Source: Mustelus asterias (Eukaryota). Taken from it: DNA of 64,000 nucleotides. Position 1 is the stretch's first letter; every line of letters starts with the position of its first letter. The notes beneath the pieces are model-generated. The model did no database searches. It saw nothing but the letters and a program-made list of their open reading frames with translations, and was not told where the DNA came from. Position numbers and translations under genes: made by a program. The stretch is taken from positions 67,270,001 through 67,334,000 of the forward strand of contig NC_135808.1 in assembly GCF_964213995.1 (NCBI RefSeq), written 5' to 3'. This document shows, piece after piece, positions 14,544 to 61,948 of the stretch.

Positions 14544-14691
14544 TGATGTGGAGAACAGTGTCTTTATATGCCCTGTTTGTGAACAGAATTCCCACTCACC
14601 TGAAGAAGGAGCTTAAGGCTCCGAAAGCTTGTGGCATTTGCTACCAAATAAACCTGTTGGACTTTAACCTGGTGTTGTTAAACTTCTTACT
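14544..14691 (+). mobile_element. Penelope-like family A insertion 1 (11 nt of inverted tail plus partial pLTR with hammerhead)
   Basis: Starts TGATGTGGAGA and ends CTTCTTACT. TSD ATATAAGAACACA at 14531-14543 and 14692-14704. Confidence 0.9.
14597..14633 (+). ncRNA. Minimal type-I hammerhead ribozyme motif in PLE pLTR
   Basis: CAC-CTGAAGA-A-GGAGC-TTAAG-GCTCC-GAAA-GC-TT-GTG: intact core, 5-bp stem II, stem I CAC/GTG, palindromic AGCT in place of stem III. Confidence 0.75.
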
Positions 14692-15439
14692 ATATAAGAA
14701 CACACACAGTACTGGTAGGAAGGGAGTTCCAAGATTTTCACCCAGCAACACTGAAGGAACAGAGGGGAACTTGCAGGTGGTGGTGTTCCCATGTATCTGC
14801 TGCCCTTGTCCTTCTAGATGGCAGTGGTCCTGGGTTTGGAAGGTGCTGCCTAAGGAGCCTTGGTGAGTTCCTGCAGTGCATCTTGTAGATTGTACACACT
14901 GCCACTACTGCGCATCAGTGGTGGTGGGAGTGAATGTTCACTTGGTGGATAGAGTGCCAAACAAGTCCTGGATGAAGTTGTGTTGTTGGAGCTGCACTCA
15001 TCCAGGCAAGTGGAGAGTGTACCATTATATTCCTGACTTGTGTCTTGTAGATGGTGGACAGACTTTGGGGAGCCAGGGGGTGAGTTAATCTCTGTGGAAT
15101 TCCCAGTCTCTGACCTGCTCTGGTAGCCACAGTCTTTATATGGCTGCTGCAGTTCAGTTTCTGCATGTTGACAGTGTTGCAGCTATACTGGAACAGCTTG
15201 GCTAGGGATGTGGCAAGTTCTGGAGTACAGGTCTCCAGCACTATTGCTGGAGTGTTGTTGGGGCCCTTAGGCTTTGCAGTCTTCAGCATTTCACGATAAC
15301 ACATGGAGTGAATCAAATTGGCTGAACACTGGCATGATGCTGGGGACCTCTGGACGAGGTTAAGGTGGATCATCCACTTGGCACTTCTGGATGAAGATGG
15401 TTGCAATCTTCTCTTTTGCGTTGATGTGCAGGGCTCCCC

Positions 15440-15732
15440 TAAAGTTAAAGTTTATTTATTAGTTACATTACATTAACACTGCAATGAGGTTACTGTGAAA
15501 ATCCCCCAGTCGTCACTCTCCAGCACCTGTTCGGGTACACTGAGGGAGAATTTAACATGGCCAATGCACCTAATCAGCACGTCTTTTGGACTGTGGGAGG
15601 AAACCGGAGCACCCGGAGGAAACCTACGCAGACACGGGGAAAATGTGGCAACTCCGTACCCAAGCTGGGAACCGAACCCGGGTCCCTGGCGCTGTGAAGC
15701 AGCAGTGCTAATCATTGTGCCACCGTGCCACC
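15440..15732 (-). mobile_element. V-SINE, tail type B
   Basis: V-domain GGAGGAAACCGGAGCACCCGGAGGAAACC. The tail ends AATAAATAAACTTTAACTTTA on the minus strand. Confidence 0.9.
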
Positions 15733-17473
15733 TTAACTTTCAGGATGAAAATATTGGCGGAGCCTCTTCCCCCACTGAGTTGTTTAAAGGTCCATTACCA
15801 TTCATGACTGCATGTGGCAGGACGGCAGAGCTTAGATCTGATCTGCTGGTTATGTGATCACTTGGCTCTATTACTTGCTGCTTCCATTGTTTATCACACG
15901 AGCAGTAGTGTTGGAGCTTCACCAGATTGACACCTCATTTTTAGGTATACCTGGTGTTTCTCCTGGGATGTTCACCTGCACTCTTCCGTGAACCACGGTT
16001 GATCCCCTAGCTTGATGGTAATGGGCAACTGGGGGATAATGACAGGACATGAGGTCACAGATTATGATTGTATGCAATTCTGTTGCTGTGATGGTTCACA
16101 GTGCCTCATGAATGCCCTGTTTGAGCTGCTAAATGTGTTCAGAATCTATCCCATTTAGCATGGTGGTAATGCCACACAACATGGTCTCCCCAGTGTGAGG
16201 ATAAGACTTTGTCTCCTCAAGGACTGTGCAATGATCGCTCCTACCAATACTGTCATGGACATATGCATCTGCGATAGGTAGATTGGTGAAGGTAAAGTCA
16301 AGTAGGTTTTTCCCTCATGTTAGTTCCCTCGCCACCTGTACAAGACCCAGTTCAGCAGATATGTTCTCAGCCAGCTTGATGAGTCATAGTGTTTTGAGCC
16401 ACTCTTAGTGATGAATATTGAAGTCTCCCACCTGGAGTATATTCTGTGCCCTTGCCAGCTTCAGTGCCTCCTCCAAGTAGTATTCAACACAGAGGAGTAC
16501 TGATTAGTCAGTTGAGGGGAGACAGTAGGAGGTGAACAGCAGGTTTCCTTACCTATGTTTGACCTGATGCCATGAGACTTCATGGAGTCTAGGTTTGATG
16601 TTTAGGCAGGACGACTCTGTCCTGACTGTATACCACTATGTCGCCACCTTTTCCTATCAATGGGACAGGACATACCCAAGGTGTGTGGGCCGTTATCTGT
16701 AAGGTATGATTTAGTGAATTTGACTACATCGGGCTGTTGTTTGACAAGTCTTTGGGACAGCTTGTGCCAAATTTTGGCACAACCCGCAGGTGTTAGTGAA
16801 AAGGACTTTTCAGGGTTGACGGGGCTGGGTGTGACCTTGTAGTGTGCAGGTCAATGCCGGGTGACCCATTTGGTTTCATTCCTTTTAGACATTGTCGCGC
16901 TTTGTTATAACTTAGTAGTTAGCGAGGAATTCAACTTACTTTCACTCTTATCTTGCTTCTTTTCTCTTCATTTCTTTCTTTTTCACTTGCATTCTTTCTT
17001 ACTGTCATGTTTTCTGATGCTGAACTTTATTTGAAGGCGCAGAGGCCACTTGTACCTTGATATTATGCTGTTGACTCACAATGTGGATGGGTTTCTTTTT
17101 GTAAAATGTCAGGCAAAAGTATGGAGTTTTGCTGTTCAGTTTCTTTGTTTTTAAAAAAAAAGGCAGCTGCTTTTTCAAAAGAGGGGCTTTATCGCTAATA
17201 ACCAGATAATTGGCAATCTTGCCACCAGCTCAGCCCCCTTAGTGGGCCACCTACTTACTGTCTTGTCCACAAGTTTACTGGTGCTCAGCCATGTGAGTTA
17301 CCGTAAAGACTTGGACATCTGAACGAGAAATGTGGTGTCCCAATGTATGACAGTTGTACCTTCTGTTAACCACAGCTTGCTATCATGATAATTCACGTAC
17401 ACTTATTGGATTAAAATGCAACCACAGTACCTCAGAAATGTCATTTGCTTCACACTTTAAAAAAAAAAAAAAA

Positions 17474-17912
17474 TTCTCACATGGGATATTGGCATCGCTG
17501 GCAAGACCTGTATTTGTTGCCCATTCCTAATTGTCCTTCAACTGAATGACTTGCTAGGTTACATCAGAGGTCAGTTGAGAGTCGATCATATTGCTGTGGG
17601 CCTGGAGTCAGGTGTAGGCCAGGCCAAATAAGGACGGCAGACTTCCCTTCCCTAAGTCAACAGGTGGGTTTTCACTACAATTTAGAGTTTCATGGAGCCA
17701 GGAATCACTGCAGGCAAGATGGAACATTTGGTGAGACAGCCAGAAGTCTCTTGACTTTAGGTAGGAATTTCACTGAGACTGGCTTTGTATTCCAGATTTA
17801 CTCATTCAGTTTAAATTCTACCAGCTGCTATGGTGGGATTTGAACCCGTGTCCACAGGGCATTAGCCTGGGCCTCTGGATTACCAGCTCTGTGACATTAC
17901 TGCTTCAGGACA
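17474..17912 (-). mobile_element. tRNA-derived SINE carrying the 3' tail of the MEYSPLAW CR1-group LINE
   Basis: Minus-strand head ...TAATCCAGAGGCCCAGGCTAATGCCCTGTGGACACGGGTTCAAATCCCACCATAGCAGC. The tail GGACAATTAGGAATGGGCAACAAATAC...GCCAGCGATGCCAATATCCCATG matches the LINE 3' end at 3030-3088. Confidence 0.75.
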
Positions 17913-18494
17913 CACTCCTCATAAATAATAAATAGCATAATGTTTGCAAGCAGCTTTGACAATCAGACCAGAAATTTAAAATGCATCATAGGTTAGAATA
18001 TGAAAAGTTCTTTCTCCTCTTCCTCCATCCCCCTACTGTTCTGGGATCCCTCTGCTCCCTCACCAGAATGGTCATCTCTCTCCTGTCAGCCAAGGCAGGC
18101 TGCAGGTTATTCACCTTTTTGAGACATTGCGACTGCGCCTGGCACCCAACCGTTGCCCGATCTCGCTGCATGCCCTACCCAGCAGGGAGGATAGGGAGTG
18201 AGGGCCCGGGCTGATGTTTTAAATGTATTATTGCTCCCCTTCAGCTCAGGAGCTTTGAGGCTAATAGCATCCTGCTTTTCTGCCAGAAGTTAACCAAAAA
18301 CTTGTGAATTGGGTGCATGGTTGTTCTGTAAAGCTCAGCATCACATGACGATATGGTGAAAAATGGTGGGTGGAAGAAGTCCTGGTGCTGAGTTTTCGAA
18401 TGATGTTGCCAATGGGGCTGCGTATAGATTAGAATTAGGAGGGGATTCAAAGATGGACACGGAGATAATAGTGTGGGAATGGGAAGAGAAGCCA

Positions 18495-18753
18495 TTGCAG
18501 GATTTTCCAGCACTTCCAGCTGGTGGAATTTTCTGGTCTCACTGAAGGCGACCCCCCCCCCCCAAAGCAGGTTTCCTGTCAGCAGGACAGGGCAAGCCAT
18601 ACAAAATGTTATGACTTCTGCAGCGCTGGAAGATCCCACCGGCAGCTAATGGGGAGCCGATTCTGTCACCAGAAAACATGCCATGCAGGGGGGTGAAGAG
18701 GTTGAGGCGGGGGTGGGGGGGGGATGCACAGATGGGATGGAACATCCTGACCT
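18495..18753. mobile_element. Non-autonomous DNA transposon (MITE-like, probably PIF/Harbinger)
   Basis: Imperfect inverted ends (GCAGGATTTTCCAGC / GATGGAACATCCTGAC) and internal GGAATTTTCTGGTC / GCTGGAAGATCCCACC, as in other short elements here. Confidence 0.5.
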
Positions 18754-19019
18754 TCGTCTACAATTGTAGACTATCAGGAATGGGACAAGGCAAGAGCAGT
18801 CCCAGTCCAGCTAGACAACAATGGAGGGGTGTTGGAGGAGGATGGTGTAGTTGGTCATGCCAAAGGCTACAGATTTTCACCAAACATTTGCTCTACAATG
18901 GCCATAGTGTATCTGCAATGCTCTCCGAGTGGTCCACTATGCTTCACACGGTCAATCAAGCTTAGTTGTGTTTTTTAAAAAAAGCAATAATTGAAATATT
19001 TCAATGATATAAGTACTTG

Positions 19020-19345
19020 GAACATTAGAACAAGAGGAGGCCATTCAGATCCTCCTACTTATTTTGCTATTTAATTAGACCATGACTGATCTGTATCTTA
19101 ATCTACCTACCTTGAATTCCACATTCCTTAATACTCTTACTGAACAAAAATCTTTTTTAATTGACCAATTTTTAGGGGATAAGAGTTCCAGATTTCTGCT
19201 ACTCTTTACTGCCTGACATTGCGCCTAATATAATTTTTGGGTTACATCCCTTTGTTCCAGACTCTGTCAGTAGGGGAAATAATTTCTCTCTATCCATCCT
19301 ATCGGGTCCTTTCATCATCTTAAACATTTCAATTAGATCTGCCCT
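19020..19345 (-). mobile_element. CR1-like LINE 3' fragment
   Basis: GGAGGCCATTCAGATCC...AGAGTTCCAGATTTCTGCTACTC...CTTAAACATTTCAATTAGATC is the reverse complement of a CR1 3' end. Confidence 0.65.
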
Positions 19346-20811
19346 CGGTAAAGTAATTTATGATTCAATAATTGCTGGAGACTGCGGCTCTAATCCCTGG
19401 GTGATTGGTGTTAAGTATTTGAGCTTTTGTCACATCCCAGTGAGCTGTTTTCAGTGAGACTGAATGGAAATTGAGAATAATGTGTGACATTATTTTACTG
19501 TACACACCAGGGAAGAGTCTGAGTTTGAGCTTCTCTCTTGCCCTCCTTCCCACGGTTCCCTGCAGGCCGTGTCCTCAGGCAAGCTGATGGAAATCCTTTC
19601 AGAAAACCTAATGCAGCGGCCGTGTGTGAACTTTGGAAGGGACTGAAGCGATAGGTGCACACACCTGAGATGCCGATGTTGTTGACATGTTGGCAAGGCA
19701 CTAATCTTCCAAATGAAACTACTGACAATGAATGAGTTATTTATGATGCCAAAATTTAGTCATCAACACTTTATCAGTAAGGGGGAAGGGAAGGCTGTAG
19801 TATAAGTTGCAGAATATGTATCAACTTGTTCAGAACAAAGAATATTTGGAATCCAGATTCATATCCCTCAGTACTAAACTTTGTCCCTGATTGACCAAAG
19901 TGCAGAATAATCAATTTGTACTGTAGTTAAAGTGCCTTTAGTTGTTTTAGAATACCATGATTGACAATTGAAGGATCGTTGTTTCCTCTTCGTAACTCCA
20001 GATAGGAAATATCCAATTGACTTTGAAGCTTTTCAGACAGAGTGCAATTGTGCAAAAAAGGAGAGATCTTGTTACATTGAACCCTGTAATATACTTAGCT
20101 TGTTAGTTTTGCCAGTGAGGCAACACTTCTAGCAACAGGAGTAGACCATTTGGCCCCTTTAGCCTATTCCGCCACACAATTAGATCATGGCAGTGCTTAA
20201 CTCTATTTGCCCGCATGAGCTCCATAACTGATAATAGTCCGACCGAATAATAATAATCCAATATTAATATAGATCGTTCCCCAAGGCTTTCGTTGCCATT
20301 GTACTCACTTCAGTCTATGCAGCAACTGTTCGGCAAGGCAGTACTAAATGAGAACAAGATAATTCGGGAGAGTATAGAATAAAAAGTGGGAAGAGAAACA
20401 TGTGTAAGGTAGGAGGAATGTTTTTGTTTTTTTCTCTCCATTTTTTTGGAGAAAATAGTGAAAAGGCTCTTTCAGTTTTATTTAATGCCTTAAGTTGCAC
20501 AGTCAGCTTCAGCCTGTGTTGGAATGGATATATTCTTCCCTGGGTAGATATCATTAACTAAACTGCAATATTTCAAAATCTCTTTATTTAGCTTGTTAAT
20601 GTAAAGATTAATTGTTCCAAGTTTGGTAATTACTAAAACAAAAATATATTTCAGTTTAGAGTTAATACTATTTCCTGTACCTCTACTGATTAAGTAATGC
20701 TGTTTTCTTCATAGAAATACTATGCACAAGAAAAAGATGCAATGGATTTCTTCCTTAGGTGTTGTTTTTCTGTCACTAAGTCATTGTCCCATTTGGTAGG
20801 ATACTTGTTTC

Positions 20812-21010
20812 TCAGTCTGGGGTTTGATTTCCAACTAGGCAATATAACTTGAACACAAACTGATCTAACACTTCATGCAGTATTGAGAGAGTGCTGCGTT
20901 GTTGGAGCTGTTGATTTTTGGATGAGACCTTCAACTTCTGAACAGCACAAAATCCTTGGATGTTATTTTGAGGGAGAAGGAAACTTCTCTCTCTTAACTG
21001 GGCAGAATTT
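20812..21010 (+). mobile_element. DeuSINE fragment
   Basis: GCAGTATTGAGAGAGTGCTGCGTTGTTGGAGCTGTTGATTTTTGGATGAGACC resembles the start of the Deu domain. Confidence 0.55.
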
Positions 21011-22540
21011 TGCACTGATTTGTTAATTCCTCCAATTCTAATATCACACAAAGCACCAATATCTTTAAGAAAACGAGTTAATGTAGTTCAATACTAACTG
21101 CAGCAAACTCTTGAGTTTCAATGACTTAGTAAGTAAGCCCACTTGCCAGTATGGTTGTGCAGCCTGTCCACCGGGAAGATCACACTGTCATTATTTGACC
21201 TGTACACCTAAGCTGAAAGAAAGCTGATCTTTAATCACCGTTGGCCTATTTGGGCTAGGTAGGGGAGATGTTGGTCAGTGCACCTGTTCTTGACCTCTCT
21301 CTTGCCTGTTGCCAGAGAGTGGAATATTGGGGTGAGGATAGGATCAGACTTGACTCTGCTTTCTTCCATGGTCAGTTAAATGAGCTCCCGCGCACACACA
21401 ATGGTTGCTTGGTGGAGTATAATGTAGCTCAGCAAGATCTGAAAGAGGGGGGGTAAAGATTAGGAGTGCAGCGGGTGGTATGCAGTGGCTTTCAACAACT
21501 GTTTGTTTCAAAATTTTTGCAAGACCCTAATTATAATCTGTAAAGGCATTAATAGGAGGTAGACTGCCAGGGGAGAGCCAAGTGGATATTTGGAATGTAA
21601 TTTATTCAGCATTTCGTTTTGTGTAATTCCAGTACATCGCTTTGAATTTCTATCTGCCTGTAGTAGAGACATTGCTTACAAACAATTGGAGATCGATCCA
21701 TCTTGCCATTTGAATCGTCATCTTCATGACCACGAGTCCAATGCAGTAATGTTTGATCATTCAATTACCAGATTATCTTTACATGTTAACATTTTGAAGA
21801 CAAATTGAACGCAGCAATTGATCAGTATAATCTCTGCTGCAAAATGTATTTGAAATGACATTATATGAAATAACTTTGAGACATGTAATCCTTATACAGA
21901 CTCTTAAACAGATGAATGCCAGATGTATTAAACTGAACACTGACAGCTGTTATTGAATCTTGTACTTTTGTTAAAAAGAAATGAAACGGGTTTGGAAACG
22001 ATTTGGCTTCTGTTGAGTTCTGCACACAAGTGGGACTGAGGGAGATGTTTTGCCGCAGTAGGTTGAACGCAGTAGGTCTGCAGTTCTATTTGAATTCTCG
22101 CTATTATGACCCAATGCACCTCTTCATAATATATAATATTTACTGAAGGTGAGCATTCCACGGTAGCCTGAATATTATTCACATCACGAAGTTCACACCA
22201 AGCCTGCAAATTCATCACTTCAGCCTGTAAATCTGAAAGTTTGTCAGCACTTTCTCCCTACATCTGGGTACCAGACTTTGCAACTACATAACTTGTCTTC
22301 CATTTGAGGGCTTTGCTGTTTACAATCCCTTTAGACGCCCATTAATACTATTAACAAATGTTGTAGGGCCAATCTGTTCTCAGTTTGTTGTCAGTTTATT
22401 GTCTGTTACTTCAATTAAAATTGGCATGTGTGAGAGGACCATCTCTGGAAAGCTATTCTTAAACACTCTGTGACATGATGCTGTCATTACCAATCTGGCA
22501 TTGTCCAAGGGATGATTTTTAAATGCAACACTGCTCTGAG

Positions 22541-23213
22541 ATAACACAGTCCATCAAGCAAACCAGCCTCCCATCCATTGACTCTGTCTATACTTCCCGC
22601 TACCCTGGAAATGTAGCCAGCATAATCGAGGACCCCACGCACCCCGAACATACACTCTTCCATCGGGGATAAAGATACAAAAATCTGAGGGGTGGCACAG
22701 TGGTGCCTCAGCGCCATGGACCCAGGTTCGATTCCCGGCTTGGATCACTGTCTGTGTGGAGTTTGCACATTCTTCCCGTGTCTGCGTGAGTTTCCTCTGG
22801 GTGTTCTGGTTTTCTCCCACGATCCAAAGAGGATTAGGTGAATTGGCCATGCTAAATTGCCCCTTCGGGTCAGAGGGACAAGCTAGGGTAAATGTATGGG
22901 AATAGGGCTTGGGTGGGATTGTGGTTGGTGCAGACACGATAGGCTGAATGGCCTCCTTCTGCACTGTAGGATTCTATGTTCTATCACGTACCAACCGACT
23001 CAAGAACAGCTTCTTCCCTGCTGCCATCAGACATTTGAATGAACCTACCTTTATATTAAGTTGATCTTTCTCTACACCCTAGCTATGACTGTAACACTAC
23101 ATTCTGCACTCTCCTTTCCTTCTCCTCTATGAATGGTATGTTTTGCCTGTATAGCGCCCAAGAAACAATACTTTTCACTGTATCCCAATACATGTGACAA
23201 TAAATCTAATCAA
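22541..23213 (+). mobile_element. Rex1/Babar-type LINE 3' end, interrupted by an HE1 SINE
   Basis: Matches the reverse complement of 4224-4590 and ends GTGACAATAAATCTAATCAAA. Confidence 0.9.
22691..22984 (+). mobile_element. HE1-type V-SINE (CR1 tail)
   Basis: GGTTCGATTCCCGGCTTGG, V-domain, and tail GAATGGCCTCCTTCTGCACTGTAGGATTCTATG. Confidence 0.9.
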
Positions 23214-31315: not shown

Positions 31316-31894
31316 ACCCTGGCTGCTGTCTTGTTCCCTAAACCAGGGGAATGAGATTAATTGTAATATATTCCACTTCCGCCCCAAGTGAAATCAGCGA
31401 ACTCTAGTAAATACTTGTGGTCAAATAGGAACCCTTCCTCTGTCTGACCCTGCTGATGTGGAGATGCCGGTGTTGGACTGGGGTAAGTACAGTAAGAAGT
31501 CTCACAACACCAGGTTAAAGTCCAATATGTTTATTTGGTAGCACAAGCCACAAGCTTTCGGAGCACTGCCCCTTTATCGGGTGAGTGGGAGTTGTGTTCA
31601 CAAACAGGGCATGTAAAGACACAAACTCAATTTACAAAATAATCATTGGAATGCGAGTCTTTACAGGTAATCAAGTCTTAAAGGTACAGACAATGTGAGT
31701 GGAGAGAGGGTTAAGCACAGGTTAAAGAGATGTGAATTGTCTCCAGCCAGGACAGTTAGTGAGATTTTGCAAGCCCAGGCAAGTTGTGGGGGTTACAGAT
31801 GGTGTGACACGAACTCAAGATCCCGGTTGAGGCCGTCCTCATGTGTGCGGAACTTGGCTATCAGTTTCTGCTCAGCGATTCTGCGTTGTTGTGT

Positions 31895-32918
31895 TGGACT
31901 CGTGGCGAACAATCATTGAAACAACGATATGATGACATCAACAAGTTCCATCCCACCATCAGACTCACCATGGACTACTGTCCGGAATTGGTTGCATTCT
32001 TGGACACACGCATCTCCATCAAGGACGGTCACCTCAGCACTTCACTGTACCGCAAGCCCACGGATACCCTCACGATGCTCCACTTCTCCAGCTTCCACCC
32101 TAAACACGTTAAAGAAGCCATCCCCTACGGACAAGCCCTCCGTATACACAGGATCTGCTCAGATGAGGAGAATCGCAACAGAAACCTCCAGACGCTGACA
32201 GATGCCCACATAAGAACAGAATATGGCGCTCAACTCATCGATCGACAGTTCCGACCCGCCACAGCGAAAAAACCGCACCAACCTCCTCAGAAGACAAACA
32301 CGGGACACGGTGGACAGAGTACCCTTCGTCGTCCAGTACTTCCCCGGAGCGGAGAAGCTACGACATCTTCTCTGGAACCTTCAACATGTCATTGATGAAG
32401 ATGAACATATCCCCACACCCCCAATTCTTGCCTTCAAACAATCGCACAACCTCAAACAGACCATTGTCTGCAGCAAACTACCCAGCCTTCAGGAGAACAG
32501 TGACCACGACACCATACAACCCTGCCACAGCAACTTCTGCAAGACGTGCCGGATCATCAACATGGATGCCATCATCTCACGTGAGAACACCATCCACCAG
32601 GTACATGGTACATACTCTTGCAACTCGGCCAAAGTTGTCTACCTGATACGTTGCAGGAAAGGATGTCCTGAGGCATGGTACATTGGGGAGACCATGCAGA
32701 TGCTACGACAATGGATGAATGAACACCGTTCAACAATCACTAGGCAGGAGTGTTCCCTTCCAGTCGGGGAACACTTCAGCAGTCACGGGCATTCAGCCTC
32801 TGATCTTCGGGTAAGTGTTGTCCAAGGCGGCCTTCACGACACATGACAACGTAGAAACTGATCGCCACATGAGGACAGCCTCAATCAGGATCTTGGGTTC
32901 ATGTCACACTATCTGTAA
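31895..32918 (+). pseudogene. Truncated, frameshifted Penelope polyprotein (RT C-terminus/thumb, Cys-rich linker, GIY-YIG endonuclease)
   Basis: INKFHPTIRLTMD..VAFLDTRISIKDGHLSTSLYRKPTD..HPKHVKEAIPYGQALRIHRICS. After a frameshift near 32270: PCHSNFCKTC and VVYLIRCRKGCPEAWYIGET..LRQWMNEH. Confidence 0.92.
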
Positions 32919-33148
32919 CCCCCATAACAACTTGCCTGGGCTTGCAAAATCTCGCTAACTGTCCTGGCTGGAGACAATACACATCTCTTTAACCTGTGCT
33001 TAACCCTCTCTCCACTCACATTGTCTGTACCTGTAAAGATTTGATTACCTGTAAAGACTCACATTCCAACCATTATCTTGTAAATTGCCTTATCTTGTAA
33101 ATTGAGTTTGTGTCTTTATATGTCCTGTTTGTGAACAATACTCCCATT

Positions 33149-33183
33149 CACCTGAAGAAGGGGCAGCGCTCCGAAAGCTTGTG
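33149..33183 (+). ncRNA. Minimal type-I hammerhead ribozyme motif
   Basis: CAC-CTGAAGA-A-GGGGC-AGC-GCTCC-GAAA-GC-TT-GTG. The inverted-arm copy (~31550-31584, minus) has a mutated core, CCGATAA. Confidence 0.75.
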
Positions 33184-33280
33184 GCTTGTGCTACCAAATA
33201 AACCTGTTGGACTTTAACCTGGTGTTGTGAGACTTCTTACTGACCCTGCTGAGCCATCAGGTTATATTTTAAACCTAAAT

Positions 33281-40327: not shown

Positions 40328-40448
40328 TGATGTGGAGATGCCGGCGTTGGACTGGGGTAAGCACAGTAAGAAGTCTCACAACACCAGGTTAAAGTCCTGG
40401 TTAAATAAACCTGTTGGACTTTAACCTGGTGTTGTGAGACTCCTTACT
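40328..40448. mobile_element. Penelope-like family A insertion 3 (121-bp mini fold-back)
   Basis: 37-nt tail, 33-nt inverted arm, TGGTT filler, 46-nt arm. TSD ATCTTGCACTC at 40317-40327 and 40450-40460. Confidence 0.92.
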
Positions 40449-43375: not shown

Positions 43376-43394
43376 ACAATTTGGACTCTTTGGT

Positions 43395-51860: not shown

Positions 51861-51861
51861 A

Positions 51862-52182: not shown

Positions 52183-52227
52183 GTGTGAGGCTGAAGATGA
52201 ACCAATTTACAGTCAGTGACTGTAAGG

Positions 52228-52390: not shown

Positions 52391-53651
52391 ATTTTACCTT
52401 CCCTGTGACACGTGTTGAAAATTTTGCATAGCTGTAAATAATCTTTCCTGGGATTTGCATCAATGAACACTTGGACTCCTGAAAACTAAACCAAGCCAAA
52501 TAATCCCAATGGCTGGAGAGACTGAGCAGCTGGAAGATGAATGTAGTTTCCGATGCTCTGTCATTGCTGTTAACAAGGTGTGTTTAAAGTTTAGAAGCAT
52601 TGTTGTGCCTTTCTGCCAGTGCTGAACTACTCTGATCATTTCAGATTAATGTGCTGCTTATTTTAATCTAAAACTGGTAGTTTTAAAGGAGGGTACAGAG
52701 GAGTGGGATTAATTGGATTGTGTAGAGCGAATGGGCCGAATGGCCTCCTGCAGTACTGCACTTATTCCATATTTCTGTAATGTCTTCCAAGTATTTATGG
52801 TCAAATGTGCACAATGTTTGCATGTGTTGACGTGTTTGAACTTGTATAAGACATTGGTTCAATTATGTCTTGCTCACCAGTCGCAAATGACAGTGATTTA
52901 AATTGAGGGGAAAAAAAAGGATCAAACACACTTGCCGGGATGGATGAGGAACGAATCAGTTTGCTGCTTTTCAGACTGTCAGATGCAGCAAGGAGGCACT
53001 GAAGTGGAAGCAACCGAATGGAGATTGATCTAATGACTTGTATTAATAGCAAACTGACAGCTCGCTTTCCTCTCCATCTGGCCAGCTCAAAGGAATGACT
53101 TTCCAGCTGCCTTCACTTTTGCCCTTTGTTTGTTTCTTTATGACAATCTAAGTTTTTGAATGCCCTTTCTTTCAGGTGGAGGGAGGAAGCTCAGTTAAAC
53201 ATTTCAGGATTTAGTAGATTGACTAAGAAACTTTGAAATCTTACTGGTGTATTTTGGCATTAACCGATGGTTGTGGGAGTAAAGGCTTGTTAATGCTTAC
53301 ATGGTAGGTCCCTGGATGGGTAGCGTGCAAGCTACAACCATTGTATTATGTATGAGCAAGCAGCAAGATTGCCATGAAAGTTGTCAATATTGTTGATCAG
53401 TTCATTTACTTCAAAGAGGTTGATGAACAGTGTGTTTGAAACTTGTAGTCTGAACTGACACAATGGGTGCATAGATTGAGTTTGATAAATGTGCAGCATG
53501 TAGGATATCTGCCAGGGTTGTGCTCCTTTGGATTGTAGTGTAAAATTTGGATACAGTAATATAACAATGTCAGTGTGTTGGGTTTTCATGATAATGAATT
53601 TGAAGTGTAGATGCTGGTTCAGAACTCTAAAATTCTGGTACATGATTAATA

Positions 53652-53948
53652 AGGGACCCCACCCATCCCGGACATTCTGTCTTCCACCTTCTTCTGTCAA
53701 GAAAAAGGATAAAAAAGTCTGAGGTCACGTAACAACCAACTCAAGAACAGCTTCTTCCCTGCCTGTCAGACTTTTGAATGGACTTACCTCGCAGTAAGTT
53801 GATCTTTCTCTACATCCTAGCTATGGCTGGTAACACTACATTCCGCACTCTCTCGTTTCCTTCTCTATGAACAGTATGCTTTGTCTGTATAGCATGCAAG
53901 AAACAATATGTTTCACTGTATACCAATGTGACAATAAATCAAATCAAA
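53652..53948 (+). mobile_element. Rex1/Babar-type LINE 3' end
   Basis: CAACTCAAGAACAGCTTCTTCCCTGC...GTGACAATAAATCAAATCAAA. Confidence 0.9.
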
Positions 53949-54234
53949 CATAAATGTAATGCAGTGTAGACAAGGGCAAAATTCTCCCAAGCTTCCACTG
54001 GCGTATTCAATGGTGGGCGTGGTGGGAGAATACGATAAGAGGCCCACAAATCAGTTTCACGCCAGTGTGAATTCACAGCCGGATCCTCCACTGGCGCCTG
54101 CCATAGTTTCTGACCTGAACACCTGTCAAAGGTCAGCATAAACATCATTAGCATCCCATTAACAGGGTACAGATGAAGACCCCAACCCCCCACCAGCCGG
54201 TAAAGGGGGTGGGTTTGGGGGGGGGGGGGGTGTG

Positions 54235-54322
54235 AACCTGAATAAGATGCTCTTTGGAGAATAGGTACAGACTCGATGGGCCAAATGGCCACCTCCTGCA
54301 CTGTAGGGATTCTTTGATTCTA
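54235..54322 (+). mobile_element. HE1-type SINE tail fragment
   Basis: GACTCGATGGGCCAAATGGCCACCTCCTGCACTGTAGGGATTC. Confidence 0.7.
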
Positions 54323-54645
54323 CTTAATCCCTCAGAGCCTGGCACAATTTGCATAAATTGAAGTTGCATGACTGTAAACTGCTACCGATAACAAATTCTC
54401 ACTGGCTAATCTTGACAACTAGCAAATCAATCAGAAATTGCCATGATCACATCAGGTTTCAAAGTAAATGACAAATCACACACCACAGTGGGTGGCCATG
54501 TGCCCTCTCTCTTTGAAGTGAATCTCCAGAAAATTTGTCAAAAATGGACAAAGCAAAGCAATTGGTATCAGTCAGCAGTTTTCGTTTCATGTGAATAAAT
54601 AATTTGGAACATTGAATAACTCGACAACATTTTGGTCTGACTTTT

Positions 54646-55430
54646 GATGCAGAATTTTGAGAATGATGCTAAATGTCCAGCTAGTCTGAAAATGGGAGAG
54701 TTCCTGATCCGTTTTTTGGGCGTGTTTTCACGCCCAATCCTACGCACCTAGTCATTGACAAAATGGTGTAGACTGTTTCTAGCTGCTGCAGGCAGTGGGC
54801 AGGGCTTAATTTGCCAGCCAGCCTGTAGAGAGAGCTACTGCGCATGTGCAGACCTCTGATGTTGCACATGCTCAATTGTAAAAGCAGGGGTCTGCAGCAG
54901 GCAGCCTCCATCAGCTCCCCTCTCCCACCACCCACCCCACAATCACGGGGGCCAGCAGCCAATCACGAGCCCCACAACCCATGGGCAAGTAGCTCCGCTG
55001 CCCAGACCGATTGCGCTCACCCCCCCCCCCCCCCCCCCACCCAAGTCCAATCCCATTGCAGAGTGCCAGCATGGGCAGTGCCAAGGTGCCAGGCTGGCAC
55101 TGCCGAAGGGCACCCTCTCTTGCCCTCGGCCTCCCCGGGGGATTCAATGGCTTCCAGTTCTACCGGCGAGGCCATAAAGACAAATGAGCCCAGACGATTG
55201 AACACCGGGTGCACTAAACAGATGCAAATGAGGATTGTAATATTTTTAAATAATTTATTCAGCCTCTTGTCCATTTCCAGTGAGAGGTTGACCTCGCCGG
55301 AAATCCGTCTCTCATAACATCACGAGAGCCAAGGAAATTGGGCGTGATCCTGATTTCCCAGCTTTTGCGTGATTTTACCAGCTCACTCCGCCCACTGATG
55401 GGTGGGGCGAGCTGGTAAAATTCCGGCCCT
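54646..55430. mobile_element. Larger non-autonomous DNA transposon (Harbinger-like ends)
   Basis: GCAGAATTTT start and GGTAAAATTCCGGCCCT end; GC-rich body with GGCAGTGCCA/TGGCACTGCC motifs, loosely similar to 59095 and 63494. Confidence 0.5.
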
Positions 55431-55453
55431 GTTCTTTGATTTGGATTCAGAAC

Positions 55454-56218
55454 AAAGCGCTTGCATTTATACTATGTGTTCATGACCGTTGTAACATCCC
55501 CAAGCATTTTATTGTCCAATAAATACCTTCAAGGTTAGTCACTGTTGGATGTGGGAAATGATGTGGAGATGCCGGCGTTGGACTGGGGTAAACACAGTAA
55601 GAGTTTTAACAACACCAGGTTAAAGTCCAACAGGTTTATTTGGTAGCAAATGCCATGGCATTTGCAACCAAATAAACCTGTTGGACTTTAACCTGGTGTT
55701 GTCAAAACTCTTACTGGATGTAGGAAATGCAGCAACCAGTTTACACAGCAAGGTCCCACAATCAACAATGAGGAAAAGGCTTGGATTTTCCAACCCCCAT
55801 GATGAGTTTTCCGGCAGCGGAGTCTGCTCTCCATCGGCCACCAGCGGGATCTTCTGTCTTGCTGTAATGCACGTCCATTTGTGTTGCTGGCCGGCCATAC
55901 CACCGAGGAACCCACCTCCAGGGGTCGCCGGCGAGAAGGGCCAGAAATCCCGGCCATTGACTGGTTCAGTCGTTTCAGTGACTATTAGTGAGGACGCCTC
56001 TGTTCTTCTTATAGTGCCATGGGACCTTCCAGACTCAACTGAGCGGATGGATGAAGCGTCGGTTTAATGTCTCGGCTGAAAGATTGCGGCTCTGACAGTG
56101 TAGCACTCCTTCAGTGCTGCACTGAAATATCAGCCTAGAATTTGAGCTTCAGTCTGTGAAGTGGGGCTTTAACTTACAAACTTCTGATTCAGAGATATGA
56201 GTCTTACCACTAAGCCAC
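55454..56218 (-). mobile_element. Near full-length DeuSINE interrupted by a PLE hairpin and a MITE (55777-55956)
   Basis: Tail GCTTGCATTTATAC; Deu domain ATAGTGCCATGGGACCTT...CTGACAGTGTAGCACTCC; head TACCACTAAGCCAC. Confidence 0.8.
55559..55715. mobile_element. Penelope-like family A insertion 4 (37-nt tail plus 120-bp loop-less palindrome)
   Basis: Arms 55596-55655 and 55656-55715 with 2 mismatches. TSD GGATGTGGGAAA / GGATGTAGGAAA at 55547-55558 and 55716-55727. Confidence 0.93.
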
Positions 56219-56824
56219 TTTTTAAAAAGGCAGACAATAGCTCTTTTAGGGAAAATAAGGACCTGCCCCTGGCAGGAATGCTAATTGAAAAAACAAGTCC
56301 TGGAATGATGGCACATACAGTGACTAGCGGACAAATAATCTAGACCGACATGACCATGATCTGTATGATTCAAATACTGCATGATTGTAGAGCAGGCCTG
56401 TTTTAAAATTGCATTAATGAATGGCCAATGTGGACCTGGTAATTTGAGGCATTCCATTCATGTATTTTGGCAGCTAAATGATCAATCACTCTTTGTGTAA
56501 CGTGAATAAACCGCACCCCCATTCCAGCACTATACTTTTTGGATGAGTCACTAATGGAGATTCCTGATAATCAGGTCTTTGCGAAATGAACCTTAACAGC
56601 TCTGAGTTTAGAAAAAAAAGGTAAAAGTTGGCCAACTTCACAGTTGAAGTTCTCTTCAGTGTAGCACCATTTATTGGTTATCTGTGTTATCACAACACAG
56701 AATGGTGACCATAGTGACCGTGTTTCCACCTTTGATCGACTCTTTGGACAAATTAAGGACTGTTTTAATTTCAGATGAATTGTCAAGTGTGGAGTTTGAG
56801 TGTTAAGCGTGCTGTTTTAATACC

Positions 56825-57127
56825 AGCACAGTGGTTAGCACTGCTGCCTCACATCGCCAGGGATCCGGATTCAATTCCAGCCTCGGGCCCCTGTCTGTGT
56901 GGACTTTGCATGTTCTCCCTGTGTCTGCGTGGGTTTCCCCCAGGTACTCCGGTTTCCTTCCACGGACCAAAGATATGTGGGTTACATTGATTGGCTGTGA
57001 TAAGTTGCCCCTTAGTGTCAGGGGGATTAGTAGGGTAAATACATGGGGTTATGGGGATGGGGCCTGGGTGGGATTGTTGTCAGTGCAGGCTCAATGGGCT
57101 GAATGGCCTCCTTCGGGAATGTTATGA
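56825..57127 (+). mobile_element. HE1-type V-SINE
   Basis: Head, V-domain and CR1-type tail with a small deletion. Confidence 0.9.
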
Positions 57128-57949
57128 TAACCTGAGATCGGCTTCTACAACTTTGCAGTAAATTTTTAATCTGATTAGTCAGCCAGATACTTAATAAGAA
57201 TAAGATTTCCTTGTTTGTTTTGGTCTGAGTCAAGTGTTTATTTTGGACGTCAACCTGAAGCAACCCTTTTTCTAGCCTGTGAGCCAAGAAAAGGGAGTGG
57301 GGGAATAAAGCAGACCAAATCAGTTTTTTTCCCCGTGATGTGTTTGTCTTTCTTAGCATGAGCTGTAGCGATTACTGGGAGTGGGGATGTAGATTGTGCT
57401 TGGCAGCTCTCTGCTCACAGTACAGATCACGTGCATTCCCGATCAAGCAGGGCAGGGCTGCAGGAAGCTCTTGGAGAAATTAGGTGGAAACCTCATTTGA
57501 GATATGAATGGGTGCCTTCTGTGCTGCAACCAATCTGTGTTAATATAGTGAAAATGCCCTTTTTGTAAGGATCCAAAAAGCAGCAAAGAGCTCGTCATGA
57601 GGCAACCCCTCTGCATGCATTCAAAATTTAAAACAAATGCACCCAAATCTAATTTTTCTTTGTAGGCCGCTACATGGGAGTAATTATTTAAATTAACATG
57701 TCTTTCAAGGGTCACACCTTACTTCTGAAGTGTTTAACTTGAAGACTAATGAAGAGAGCACTCTGTAACCCACACTGTGTGTTATCTCAACATTATTATA
57801 ATTATGCATCGCTTGCTCGGAAGTTTTTCCCTATCTGGCTGCTGCACTCTAAGTATGATGTGGAGATGCCGGCGTTGGACTGGGGTAAGCACAGTAAGAA
57901 GTCTCACAACACCAGGTTAAAGTCCAACAGGTTTATTTCGTAGCAAATA

Positions 57950-57986
57950 CCATAAGCTTTCGGAGCAATGCTCCTTCGTCAGATGG
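57950..57986 (-). ncRNA. Minimal type-I hammerhead ribozyme motif
   Basis: Reverse complement reads CCAT-CTGACGA-A-GGAGC-ATT-GCTCC-GAAA-GC-TT-ATGG. Confidence 0.78.
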
Positions 57987-58160
57987 AGTGGTCTCTTCTC
58001 AAACAGGGCACAGACACAGAAATCAAATTACAGAATACTGATTAGAATGCAAATCCTACAGCCCCATTTAAGACCTGGCTGGCTGTAGAGATTTGCATTC
58101 TAATCAGTATTCTGTAATTTGATTTCTGTGTCTGTGCCCTGTTTGAGAACAGAGACCACT

Positions 58161-58197
58161 CCATCTGACGAAGGAGCATTGCTCCGAAAGCTTATGG
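58161..58197 (+). ncRNA. Minimal type-I hammerhead ribozyme motif
   Basis: CCAT-CTGACGA-A-GGAGC-ATT-GCTCC-GAAA-GC-TT-ATGG; stem I CCAT/ATGG. Confidence 0.78.
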
Positions 58198-58529
58198 TAT
58201 TTGCTACCAAATAAACCTGTTGGACTTTAACCTGGTGTTGTGAGACTTCTTACTGCACTCTAAGTACACAAGGTTTGAAAAAAAGAGATGTATTTGTTAA
58301 GCGTATCCATCTCACTGAGGAGGCTTGAGGCACATCCTCAGCCAACAACCTGCCCTGAAAACGTTGCGCACATTTTGACAGCTGTGATAAATTCCACCAA
58401 AGCAGCTGAGACAATCTGTAACATTCTAAAGCAATCAACAGCATTCCAAATCAATCAACACACAACATTCTTTTAAAAAAAATCAATTAGCCTATTATCC
58501 CAATGTTAATGGGCCCTTTTTTTCTAAAA

Positions 58530-58715
58530 TCTTGCAGGATCTAGATCTGCTTCTTTGTCAATAACAAATCCATTATTCCTTGTGTTATATGCAATTTGCG
58601 TACCAAATTTTGTTGAAATCCTTCCATTAGATTTTAAGATTCGTTTGACAGACAAATGGACGAACAAACAGGAGTGAAAGAGAACTTTCATCCACCTGCA
58701 GTAGTGGAGATAATT
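58530..58715 (-). mobile_element. Possible DINE-1/HINE-like non-autonomous Helentron relic
   Basis: Minus strand: TTATCTCCAC...GTGGA terminal stem, degenerate GTYY microsatellite (TGTTTGTTCGTCCATTTGTCTGTC), then GGATTTCAACAAAATTTGGT. Recalled similarity to fish HINE-like repeats. Confidence 0.45.
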
Positions 58716-58861
58716 ATTTGAAAATTTGGACTGACATTCAGTGCAAATTCCTTGGTTATTTAGGGAATGAGGAGTCGTCAGTGGATGTCGGACGGCTGAG
58801 CTTGTAGCAAACGCTTCTAGCCATGAACCTGCCATTGTCCTTTTCAGCATTAGGCAGAATT

Positions 58862-59094
58862 ATCAGAGAATCCCAACAGTGCAAAAGGAGGTCATTCGGC
58901 CCATCGAGTCTGCACTGACAACAATCCCACACAGGCCCTATCCCCATAACTCCACATATTTACACTGTTAGTTCCCTTGACACTATGGGCTGTTTAGCAT
59001 GGCCAACCAACCTAACCCGCACATCTTTAGACTATGGGAAGAAACCAGAGCAGCTGGAGTAAACCCACACAGACATGGGGAGAATGTGCAAACT
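58862..59094 (-). mobile_element. 5'-truncated HE1-type SINE
   Basis: CR1 tail and V-domain up to GAGAATGTGCAAACT. Confidence 0.88.
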
Positions 59095-59675
59095 TTTACC
59101 AAAGTTTGTCAAGAGTGTGTGTCAGGCTGAAAACTGGCATGTATCTCTCCAGACGCACAGCTGAGTTTTCAGACCAGATTTTCTGGCAATCTGGGGGCGT
59201 GGTTTTTTGTCACTCTGGTGGGGCGTGGTCTAATGGGGCCAATAGGGCCGGCCCTCCAGAGATTGCGGTGCCAGCTTTTAAAGGACATGGCGGACCACCC
59301 CACAAGCATTAGAGTGCCCTATTCCCTCCCCAACATGCAAGTATAGGGGGCAGCCCCCAGCCCCTAAGTGGCTCACCAGAGAGCCCACCGTTGGCACTAT
59401 CAGCCTGGAACTTCCAATCGATGTGACGTCACGCCAGCAAGGCATAAATATTCAGTGAGGGGGAACCATGTGGCTGGGAAATCCTTTAATGATATTGAAA
59501 CTTATTAAAATATATGGAAATGAGGTTGCTACCCATTACGACACTGGTGAGGGACGGGGAAAATCAGGAAACGAGATCTCGCCGTGAAGAATCCTGTTTC
59601 CTGACTCTCTCATGACATTTTGGGCCTGCATCACTGTTTACACTGAAGGCTAACACTTGCTCAAAATCGCCCCCA
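59095..59675. mobile_element. Non-autonomous DNA transposon, GC-rich (related to 54646)
   Basis: Right end CAAAATCGCCCCCA; internal AAACGAGATCTCGCC motif. Confidence 0.45.
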
Positions 59676-59858
59676 TTGTTCCGACTTCCTGCTCTTTCCC
59701 CATCATATTTATTCCTGGTTTGGATGGTTTGGGGTCCAGTCTTTCTCTAGGGTGACTCTGCCCTGCTTCATGCTAATTTAGGAAGCTGAGGTGAGGTGCA
59801 AACAATGACTAGCTAAATGTGTAGCCAGTTATGCTCTGCTTCAGAAAGTCACTTTTTC

Positions 59859-60092
59859 CAACACGTTCCAACAGAAGCTGACCCAACTGCCCTGCTGCAG
59901 TGAATTAATGTTGGGCAACTTTCATCTCTTGTTTCTCGTGGGTTTTTTTAAGGTTGCCCAAGTGACATAAACTTTCGTAACTTTTTAATATCCTGATACC
60001 TTTTTGGCAAATGCAATATATATCCAGGCTATGACAGTAGTATTAGTAATCTATTTATGTTAATTATTTACTGACCAGTAATTGGGAGCAAT
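59859..60092 (+). repeat. 234-bp unique segment duplicated at 60919-61152
   Basis: Direct repeat offset by 1060 bp with 3 substitutions (59990/61050, 60063/61123, 60076/61136). Confidence 0.97.
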
Positions 60093-60100
60093 TTCTAAAA

Positions 60101-60192
60101 TAACTTGATGAAATGAAGGGGAAGGTTCAAAGTTCATTTTCATGTTTAACTTGATGAAATGAAGGGAAAGGTTCAAAGTTCATTTTCACGTT
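60101..60192 (+). repeat. Tandem duplication, 2 x 46 bp
   Basis: TAACTTGATGAAATGAAGGG(G/A)AAGGTTCAAAGTTCATTTTCA(T/C)GTT occurs twice. Confidence 0.95.
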
Positions 60193-60422
60193 TAGCTTGG
60201 CACAGACCAATGCTGGGAAGTCTCATTTTAAGCTGAACTTTAGGCTCTCTTAATGAGCACATATCTCAATCCAAAGTTCAAACACGAAAGCATTTGCCTT
60301 TCATGAAGTGAAGGTTGTTGTAAGTATGTCTGTATCCCTCCCCCAAAGAATAGCTAACATCTGGGGGCAAAATCTGCACTTAAGAGTCAGACTTGGCTTG
60401 GTGGGAGTATTCTCACTGGAGA

Positions 60423-60555
60423 AGTGGTAGAGTAGTGGTCCAGAGGCTCCAGGCTGTCTGAGGACACAGGTTCAAATCCCATCATGGCCTGGTGAAATTT
60501 AAATTCACAATTAAAAATCTGGAATTTAGCAACTGTGCAACCATCATCAATTTGT
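60423..60555 (+). mobile_element. Head fragment of the 17474-family tRNA-SINE
   Basis: TCCAGAGGCTCCAGGCT...GGTTCAAATCCCATCATGGC...AAATCTGGAAT. Confidence 0.65.
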
Positions 60556-60562
60556 GATTTAC

Positions 60563-61331
60563 GGGTGGCACAGTGGTTAGCACTGTGGCCTCACAGCGCC
60601 AGGGACCTGGGTTTGATTCCCAGCTTGGGTCACTGTCTATGCGGAGTTTGCACGTTCTCCCTGTGTCTGCGTGGGTTTCCTCCGGGTACTCCGGTTTCCT
60701 CTCAGGTGCTGGTTAGGTGCATTGGCTGTGCTAAATTCTCCCTCGAGTGCCAGAGTGTTGATTTGATTGATTGTCACATTTATTGGTATTCAGTGAAATG
60801 TGTTATCAGTAACCCCCACAGCTTTCCCCCTGATCTTGCAGAATCTCACTAGCTGTTCTGTCTGGAGACAATACACATCTCTTTAACCTGTGTTGAATGC
60901 TCCCTCAACCCACATTTGCAACACGTTCCAACAGAAGCTGACCCAACTGCCCTGCTGCAGTGAATTAATGTTGGGCAACTTTCATCTCTTGTTTCTCGTG
61001 GGTTTTTTTAAGGTTGCCCAAGTGACATAAACTTTCGTAACTTTTTAATGTCCTGATACCTTTTTGGCAAATGCAATATATATCCAGGCTATGACAGTAG
61101 TATTAGTAATCTATTTATGTTAGTTATTTACTGACAAGTAATTGGGAGCAATGCTATACAGACAAAGCATACCGTTCATAAATAAGAAAGGAGAGAGTGC
61201 AGAATGTAGTGTTACAGTGATAGCTGTAGGGAAAGATCAATTTAATGCGAGGTAGGTCCATTCAGAAGTCTGATGGCAACAGGGAAGAAGCTATTTTCAC
61301 AGTAACTTCATTGCAGTGTTAATGTAAGCCT
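60563..61331 (+). mobile_element. V-SINE type B split by a Rex1/Babar 3' fragment (60758-60802 and 61153-61293, -)
   Basis: SINE runs to ~60757 and resumes at TTTTCACAGTAACTTCATTGCAG (~61294). The LINE pieces match 4224-4410. Confidence 0.85.
60803..60916 (+). mobile_element. Internal PLE family A pLTR fragment, no termini
   Basis: Reverse complement of 61592-61706 with 1 substitution and 1 single-base indel. Confidence 0.9.
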
Positions 61332-61393
61332 GCAAAAACAGAAAATGCTGGAAAATCTCAGCATGCCTGACAGCATCTGTGGACAGAGAATAA

Positions 61394-61948
61394 AGTAAGA
61401 AGTCTCACAACACCAGGTTAAAGTCCAACAGGTTTATTTGGTAGCAAATACCATAAGCTTTCGGAGCACTGCTCCTTCGTCAGATGGAGTGGATATCTGC
61501 TCTCAAACAGTGCACAGACACAGAAATCAAGTTACAGAATACTAATTAGAATGCGAAACTCTCCAGCCAGCCAGGTCTTAAAGGTACAGACAATGTGGGT
61601 GGAGGGAGCATTCAACACAGGTTAAAAGAGATGTGTATTGTCTCCAGACAGAACAGCTAGTGAGATTCTGCAAGATCAGGGGGAAAGCTGTGGGGGTTAC
61701 TGATAATGTGACATAAATCCAACATCCCGGTTTAGGCCGTCCTCATGTGTGCGGAACTTGGCTATCAGTTTCTGCTCAGCGACTCTGCGCTGTCGTGTGT
61801 CGTGAAGGCCGCCTTGGAGAACGGAGAAGGAGCAGCGCTCCGAAAGCTTATGGTATTTGTTACCAAATAAACCTGTTGGACTTTAACCTGGTGTTGTGAG
61901 ACTTCTTACTGTGCTTACCCCAGTCCAACGCCGGCATCTCCACATCAT
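61394..61948 (-). mobile_element. Penelope-like family A insertion 6 (long arm 61394-61822, short arm plus 37-nt tail ~61825-61947)
   Basis: TSD GACAGAGAATAA at 61382-61393 and 61949-61960. The long arm includes the ORF end (..RRVAEQKLIAKFRTHEDGLNRDVGFMSHYQ*). Confidence 0.95.
61451..61487 (-). ncRNA. Minimal type-I hammerhead ribozyme motif
   Basis: Reverse complement reads CCAT-CTGACGA-A-GGAGC-AGT-GCTCC-GAAA-GC-TT-ATGG. Confidence 0.78.

Follow-up and report, generated by a model that had tools for sequence, protein, structure and literature searches.

Endonuclease-bearing (EN+) Penelope-like elements (PLEs) are known to leave structures in which copies of one element face each other. Pen2a_Av carries an inverted pseudo-long terminal repeat (pLTR), a 31-bp tail on one side and a 9-bp target-site duplication (TSD) (PMC3846280), and the same general insertion scheme is described in the available part of PMC8557442, where the mechanism that gives rise to the one-sided tail and to the tandem and inverted arrangements is called open. 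In vitro, PAc (Poseidon, Anolis carolinensis) starts reverse transcription at two internal sites that bound the tail, near a stem-loop at the junction of pLTR and open reading frame (ORF). Both target strands are nicked and extended, ATT is the preferred target, the start site does not differ between strands, a dimer is predicted and the pLTR contains a hammerhead; the accessible text of this study leaves the steps after priming unvalidated (PMC11167929). Two start sites and extension on both strands have thus already been demonstrated for another PLE (PMC11167929) and are not new, and the architecture of inverted pLTR, one-sided tail of 30-40 nt and TSD is likewise on record in the portions seen of PMC11167929, PMC3846280 and PMC8557442. 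Here we analyse six PLE insertions in a stretch of 64,000 nucleotides from Mustelus asterias (NCBI RefSeq assembly GCF_964213995.1, contig NC_135808.1, positions 67,270,001 to 67,334,000 of the forward strand; hereafter the window), together with further copies of the same family from this genome. Our data add a dyad-symmetric target, a strict pairing of the two ends, arms of the same variant and a coupling of the inner ends.

A preliminary description of the window had located six elements of 121 to 1788 bp, and all six are found where it placed them. In each, two arms meet head to head, one with a tail and one without; one outer end carries TGATGTGGAGA and the other CTTACT. Counted on both strands, TGATGTGGAGA is found six times in the window, solely at element ends. 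We consider it probable from the sequence features described below that a staggered double nick is made at a dyad target, likely by a dimer, that both 3' ends then prime on one RNA at two start windows, and that the resulting complementary DNAs (cDNAs) are end-joined. The family is abundant: the 3.68-Gb genome contains 36,896 exact matches to a 33-mer of the tail and 162,329 to a 32-mer of the pLTR core, while the reversed controls gave none, so that its abundance is far above chance.

For the quantitative analysis we selected about 300 loci that match exact motifs, the greater part of them within the first 10 Mb of a single contig; unless stated otherwise, arms of less than about 33 nt escape such samples. 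From 216 loci and the window we obtained 389 distinct ends (197 no-tail, 190 tail and 2 internal), none of which was classed with an extension of 18-29 nt. These gave 147 pairs, or 146 after removal of one duplicate. Arm statistics are based on 122 pairs, from which 14 junction-selected pairs and 10 with central inserts of more than 30 nt are excluded, and a replicate comprises 60 further, tail-anchored loci. Nick positions and microhomology were scored after exclusion of 13/109 sites, which have short duplications, and of 13 untemplated ends. Element coordinates are counted from the last T of CTTACT as position 0.

With nicks fixed by the target dyad, tail arms start at +34 to +44 with a mode at 36-37 and one case at +50 (n = 90 genomic copies), and no-tail arms start at -6 to +6 with a mode at -2/-1 (n = 83 genomic copies). 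The two starts are uncorrelated and lie 30-51 nt apart, centred on 36-39 (n = 80). The outer ends are thus windows about 10 nt wide. The preliminary description had proposed two fixed outer ends exactly 37 nt apart; the value of 37 holds in all five measurable copies of the window as the fixed spacing of two motifs inside the element, but not for the genomic ends themselves.

The pairing of the two ends follows a strict rule. A tail end and a no-tail end are combined in 146/146 two-armed copies, one apparent no-tail pair having a partly deleted tail, and in 60/60 two-armed copies of the replicate. Genome-wide, 17,624 short matches run from a tail to an opposite core, compared with 160 from tail to tail. 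Of eight tail-tail loci inspected, six are internal junctions of compound insertions and two show no TSD evident by eye. The no-tail/no-tail pattern gave six matches, five with mutated tails and one genuine, where about 74 would be expected under independent choice (827 × 0.18/2). This deficit, together with the pairing counts, demonstrates that the two ends do not draw at random from the two start sites. One tail-tail copy (L229) is flanked by an inverted duplication of host DNA, not by a TSD.

The rebuilt targets form a dyad. TG-N16-CA is present in 76/121 and TG-N17-CA in 23/121 targets (shifted controls 2.5 and 0.5), and either spacing was found in 98/121; in the replicate the value is 44/56 (controls 2 and 1). 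A C precedes TG in 58/83 and a G follows CA in 56/83 targets, giving CTG-N16(17)-CAG. The duplication starts 2 nt inside each half-site (57/83 and 50/83), which defines a central TSD of 12(13) bp. A 12-bp duplication, if made by priming from both ends, would imply a break with 3' overhangs. All six elements of the window fit the dyad, with a spacer of 16 in three and 17 in three; their duplications measure 13-15 bp at maximal extent and 12-13 bp with dyad-placed nicks, in place of the 8-13 bp proposed earlier. Primer-template microhomology of at least 2 nt is found at 37/90 tail ends and 26/83 no-tail ends, compared with a null of 7-8%, and the excess of 1-3 nt is alike at both ends. A dyad target for PLEs was not reported in the literature searched, from which most subscription papers were outside reach. 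In several cases, among them L283, L284, L286 and L291, independent insertions occupy the same position of host repeats that carry the CTG-N16-CAG dyad.

We then compared the two arms of each copy. Their inner ends, described before as freely varying, are in fact coupled (rho 0.85) and clustered about 100 nt into the element: 80/122 pairs end within 20 nt of each other (21 expected), and where both arms exceed 130 nt, 18/42 still end within 40 nt (5.1 expected). The replicate agrees (rho 0.72; 40/58 within 10 nt, 18.8 expected). Arm differences are centred on 0, not on 37. The arms also tend to be of the same variant. The coarse subfamily label matches in 77/86 pairs (26 expected) and the fine stem-II variant in 35/39 (6.3 expected); private k-mers are common to both arms in 4/138. 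A single template RNA would account at once for the pairing rule, the variants common to both arms and the coupling. Dual priming, in which two RNAs of one source locus, one per protomer, are each copied from their own start site, is known as a proposal for L1 (PMC2837659, as far as seen). It accommodates the copies with unequal arms, and cis preference would account for the subfamily concordance. However, independent templates should end independently, which is at odds with the co-termination of the long arms; lockstep movement predicts an offset of +37 where we find 0, and the tail/no-tail rule would need a separate cause. We therefore regard dual priming as unlikely.

Either arm can be the longer one. 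Beyond a difference of 20 nt the no-tail arm is longer in 22/122 copies and the tail arm in 20/122, while within 20 nt the split is 36 to 29. This bears on a fold-back route, in which a single tail-primed cDNA copies itself and the second arm, through a stop or a cut, ends up 37 nt shorter before it joins the other target end. Such a route, related to the EN-mediated resolution suggested as the origin of the tail in the part of PMC8557442 consulted, would explain same-source, near-equal arms and strict asymmetry at once. It requires a tail arm at least as long as the no-tail arm, yet the no-tail arm is longer by more than 20 nt in the 22 copies just mentioned, a type also represented by the 148-, 1788- and 554-bp elements of the window. 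Moreover, six no-tail single arms with a direct TSD exist, and two start sites on the RNA are seen in vitro (PMC11167929, accessible text). Because either arm can be longer, simple fold-back is ruled out as the general route, and we rate it as very improbable overall. That both target ends prime, at two different positions of the RNA, as proposed initially, is further supported by the tail/no-tail pairing, by the microhomology excess at both ends and by the finding that either arm may exceed the other.

The inner ends show a hotspot at -97 to -107, 2-8 nt 5' of the hammerhead core of the pLTR. Single arms show it too, as does the shorter arm of copies with unequal arms, and blunt junctions are among those that fall there. 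Candidates for its origin are the 5' end of the RNA or a stop of the reverse transcriptase (RT) at a CTGTT..AACAG hairpin. Hammerhead cleavage is a weak candidate for the hotspot in general: only four arms end exactly at the site and the spread is ±7, although the 157-bp element of the window fits. A TATA-Inr promoter is a further candidate beside an RT stop: a TATA-like TTTATA is present some 30 nt upstream in part of the subfamilies and missing in others that have the hotspot. A search for further full-length copies, meant to check run-off at the upstream pLTR, returned none beyond L051. In contigs from another organism, loose ends fall at the tail position as well as at the no-tail position, which we note as a lead only.

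The hotspot is also relevant for a variant of twin priming in which arm symmetry arises from processing of a long palindrome, by hairpin or cruciform opening and central deletion, at or just after integration. Long inverted repeats are unstable, and recurrent junctions do fall on palindromic or repeated microhomologies (GAATTC, AAAGC, AT, AGCGCT). Symmetry and arm length do not change with age, however (symmetric arms in 22/35, 38/57 and 20/30), and near-perfect palindromes with arms of about 585 nt (L099) and 1480 nt (L091) persist in the assembly. The occurrence of the hotspot in single arms, in the shorter arm of unequal copies and at blunt junctions also speaks against it. This alternative thus appears quite unlikely. 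The two long palindromes, like L052 and L090, belong to a very young subfamily with a 60-nt insertion near the ORF stop, approximately 310-326 nt upstream of CTTACT.

The junctions between the arms comprise 48 overlaps of at least 2 nt, 23 blunt or 1-nt joins and 51 inserts (n = 122); among inserts of at least 6 nt, 16/28 are locally templated, a count given without a computed null. Overlaps, blunt joins and locally templated inserts are expected from microhomology-mediated end-joining. The overlaps and templated inserts support the earlier suggestion that the cDNAs are end-joined. Fragments of the ORF start, which lies downstream of the priming sites, occur at the inner junctions of L034/L061, L060, L106, L232 and L235, and suggest template jumps onto RNA 3' of the start sites.

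All six inner junctions in the window differ, in agreement with the preliminary description, and among the arm pairs 119 of 122 junctions are distinct (54/58 in the replicate). This is difficult to reconcile with short forms being units like miniature inverted-repeat transposable elements (MITEs) that a transposase, or the recopying of palindromic transcripts, multiplied from a small number of masters. Widely shared inner junctions had been named at the outset as an observation that would count against twin priming, and sharing was indeed found in part: a GAATTC-centred junction is identical, by eye, in 23 of 50 listed loci among 471, i.e. in at least 23. As this junction spans at least six subfamily variants with different outer ends, it is recurrent rather than amplified, and the twin-priming model survives. 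A second case is provided by L164:3760-4050 and L197:3760-4050, 1.1 Mb apart, which have a common idiosyncratic junction but different flanks and their own TSDs; here the palindrome was possibly recopied as a unit, which would be a rare event; this junction has only two copies genome-wide. The junction of the 399-bp element of the window is unique in the genome, and the copies form a continuous size series up to full-length elements with the same ends and target. Amplification from masters is thus the most improbable of the alternatives, and the short forms mimic MITEs without MITE amplification, as had been proposed.

Several observations weigh against copying of one RNA from both target ends. 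No partner could be mapped for 94/389 ends overall and for 44/148 in core-anchored loci, and 57/85 scorable unpaired ends have no TSD within 250 nt. The arms differ by more than 20 nt in 42/122 copies, and by up to 2.7 kb; these copies require that one cDNA stopped early, that an arm was trimmed or that priming took place in another pLTR of a tandem RNA. Arm labels disagree in 4/39 pairs at the fine and 9/86 at the coarse level. Two RNAs transcribed from a single locus, or conversion of one arm by the other, could also produce arm concordance, and symmetric arms could arise by rapid central deletion at insertion. The unpaired ends do retain the target half-site (64/85, compared with 18 in the control).

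Taken together, we favour the following sequence of events. The element protein, probably as a dimer, would cut both strands 12-13 bp apart at CTG-N16/17-CAG, and both target 3' ends would prime reverse transcription on one RNA, aided by primer-template pairing over 1-3 nt. The start of one cDNA would lie at about -2 to +1, where CTTACT ends, and that of the other at the ORF start codon, some 37 nt further in the 3' direction. The RT that trails would displace the cDNA of the leading one, and in most cases both cDNAs would terminate at a common RNA coordinate, set by the 5' end of the RNA or by a block and typically about 100 nt into the element. Host microhomology-mediated end-joining may then fuse the two cDNA 3' ends, sometimes with one arm trimmed or with templated bases added. 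A stronger version holds that PLE integration is obligately two-ended, with a dimer making a programmed 12-bp staggered break in the CTG-N16-CAG dyad and two RT active sites copying one RNA from starts 37 nt apart, one displacing the cDNA of the other and both running to the RNA 5' end. We put this version forward tentatively, as possible rather than probable. If it were true, palindromes would be the default product of this class of retroelement and the forms of about 240 bp would record priming next to the 5' end of the mRNA.

The abundance of the family yields precise parameters, namely a CTG-N16-CAG duplex, a 12-bp stagger with 3' overhangs, two start windows and the prediction of a single RNA, which are usable in the existing in vitro assay for PLEs (PMC11167929). 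Retrotransposition would have left at least some 17,000 short palindromes in this genome as by-products, and repeat annotation could misfile these as MITEs or as miRNA-like hairpins.

The coding capacity of the family is represented by L051, a full copy in which an inverted 1085-nt no-tail arm is followed by pLTR-ORF-pLTR and the tail, with a unit of 3021 nt, repeats more than 99% identical and a 12-bp TSD. The ORF comprises 892 amino acids counted from ATG and matches Pfam RVT_1 (E = 1e-8); in this intact tandem copy the tail extends as far as the A of that ATG. A C-terminal GIY-YIG endonuclease was identified by eye (VVY..YIG; Pfam gave no match for GIY-YIG), with the motif string VVY-RCKKGC-YIG-H-H. 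A CCHH motif whose two Cys lie between GIY and YIG (VVYLIRCKKGCPEAWYIG, then EH..EH) is found in L051 and in the 1788-bp element of the window, and a CX4CxxC linker, CHSNLCKTC, lies upstream of the endonuclease in L051. According to the available part of PMC8557442, the CCHH arrangement with two Cys is a trait of EN+ PLEs and a CX2-5CxxC linker between RT and EN is a trait of Neptune/Nematis. L051 also displays the partial tandem giving pLTRs, the inverted pLTR, the tail of 30-40 nt and the TSD that characterize EN+ PLEs. The initial assignment to PLEs is thus borne out by the ORF with RT and GIY-YIG, the linker and the pLTR structure, and judged by these sequence traits the family is an EN+ Penelope-like retrotransposon of Neptune/Nematis type, a placement made by linker definition. 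Membership in the Penelope/Poseidon clade was rejected, as that clade is without the CX2-5CxxC linker present here. A sequence search of the PDB returned no relatives.

The pLTR appears to hold a minimal hammerhead ribozyme motif. In the 399-bp element it lies at 58160..58197 on the forward strand (CCAT CTGACGA A GGAGC..GCTCC GAAA GCTT ATGG), and the same motif is found in other arms long enough to contain it. Core, bulged A and helices I and II are recognizable, the helices covary, and position H17 is T in 123, A in 42, C in 10 and G in none of 175 matched arms; the motif was unmatched in 36 arms. It agrees with the minimal hammerhead traits described in the part of PMC4209133 seen. An Rfam search for a hammerhead gave no match, with weak hairpin or miRNA matches instead. 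RNA folding predicts an 8-bp stem that encloses the no-tail start. The small CTGTT..AACAG hairpin (e.g. window 14572-14586) is located some 108 nt upstream of CTTACT, and its terminal CAG lies immediately 5' of helix I of the hammerhead. In the Penelope element of D. virilis, helix I marks the end of an intron (PMC4209133, available part); spliced copies were not seen among the copies examined here.

The individual insertions in the window illustrate the range of forms. The first (14544..14691, 148 bp) has a tail stub of only 11 nt (14544-14554), followed by 3 nt and a no-tail arm of 134 nt (14558-14691, from -135), within a 13-bp TSD ATATAAGAACACA at a CTG-N17-CAG target. In the second and largest (31454..33241, 1788 bp) an antisense tail arm (31454-31894) and a sense no-tail arm (31894-33241) overlap by 1 nt, with arm 5' ends at -407 and -1365, respectively, a 12-bp TSD and the target CTG-N16-CAT. 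Its no-tail arm holds a decayed coding part for the RT thumb and GIY-YIG; a Pfam search of two of its frames gave zero matches. The shortest (40328..40448, 121 bp) comprises the tail plus 33 nt, a 5-nt insert and a no-tail arm of 46 nt (arm 5' ends -32/-45, tail/no-tail here and below), with a 13-bp TSD ATCTTGCACTCTG at TTG-N17-CAG.

The fourth element (55559..55715, 157 bp) is symmetric, with the tail plus 61 nt and a no-tail arm of 61 nt meeting in an AT overlap (-60/-60), and has a 12-bp TSD with one mismatch at CTG-N16-CAG. The predicted hammerhead cleavage site coincides with the start of both arms, and its junction occurs at six loci genome-wide. The fifth (57856..58254, 399 bp) is made up of the tail (57856..57892, reverse strand, 37 nt) plus 171 nt, a 1-nt insert and a no-tail arm of 190 nt (-182/-198), flanked by a 12-bp TSD at CTG-N16-CAA. 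The sixth (61394..61947, 554 bp) is in reverse orientation to the other five, its no-tail arm (61394-61821) being followed by a 4-nt insert and the tail arm (61826-61947); the arm 5' ends are -88/-430, the TSD is 13 bp and the target CTG-N17-CAG. At 60803-60916 lies an endless piece of 114 nt, 98% identical to the interior of this no-tail arm and in opposite orientation, and directly after it a 238-nt host duplicate (59855-60092/60915-61152, 98% identical, source 1060 nt upstream). Piece and duplicate look like a local templated rearrangement next to the sixth element. The window further contains decayed LINE reverse-transcriptase fragments at 4153-5679 and 14915-15451 (Pfam RVT_1 at 4602-5240) and many tRNA-like SINE copies across its whole length.

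How does this family compare with known systems? With PAc it would have in common two RT start sites that bound the tail, near a stem-loop at the pLTR-ORF junction, and nicking and extension of both strands, probably by a dimer; a hammerhead motif in the pLTR is a further shared trait. Unlike PAc, it has a CX4CxxC linker, which is missing from Penelope/Poseidon, its target is the CTG-N16-CAG dyad and not ATT, and it shows 1-3 nt of primer-template microhomology, with the two starts split between the two target ends (in each case as compared with the accessible text on PAc). A paper stating twin priming of a PLE on one RNA was not found in the literature searched, most subscription papers being outside reach, and the portions seen of PMC8969392, PMC12910113 and bioRxiv 10.64898/2026.07.22.740005 contain nothing further on PLE mechanism.

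Twin and dual priming of L1 are defined in PMC2837659, of which we consulted the available part. As in L1 twin priming, inverted pieces lie within a TSD, microhomology is found at the inner junction and the structure fits priming from both target 3' ends. In L1, however, the annealing site of the second primer is internal and variable, and non-overlapping pieces result, whereas here the starts lie in fixed windows 37 nt apart and the same stretch is copied twice, so that the arms overlap fully and palindromes arise as the main route. The reaction thus appears to work like twin priming but to differ from the L1 form, which is defined by non-overlapping pieces with an internal deletion.

The short forms are like MITEs, as far as these are described in the part of PMC8969392 seen, in being short, with inverted arms, a TSD and high copy number. 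Unlike MITEs, they have no common master junction, their outer ends are ragged and their arms asymmetric, and they are apparently made by reverse transcription. Where MITEs have one structure with exact termini, 119/122 junctions are distinct and the ends vary by about 10 nt; where MITEs have terminal inverted repeats in common with a DDE transposase element, the arms correspond to the 3' end of an RT/GIY-YIG element.

The closest correspondence is with Pen2a_Av and the general EN+ PLE scheme, which include an inverted 5'-truncated copy, a tail of 30-40 nt at one end and a TSD; the partial pLTR-ORF-pLTR tandem of L051, with its tail running into the ORF start, also follows this scheme. The text seen of PMC3846280 and PMC8557442 is without a twin-priming model, and the pairing rule, the dyad target and the arm coupling are quantified here. 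In contrast to the available EN+ PLE descriptions, most insertions of the family in Mustelus asterias, out of tens of thousands of copies, take the inverted two-armed form.

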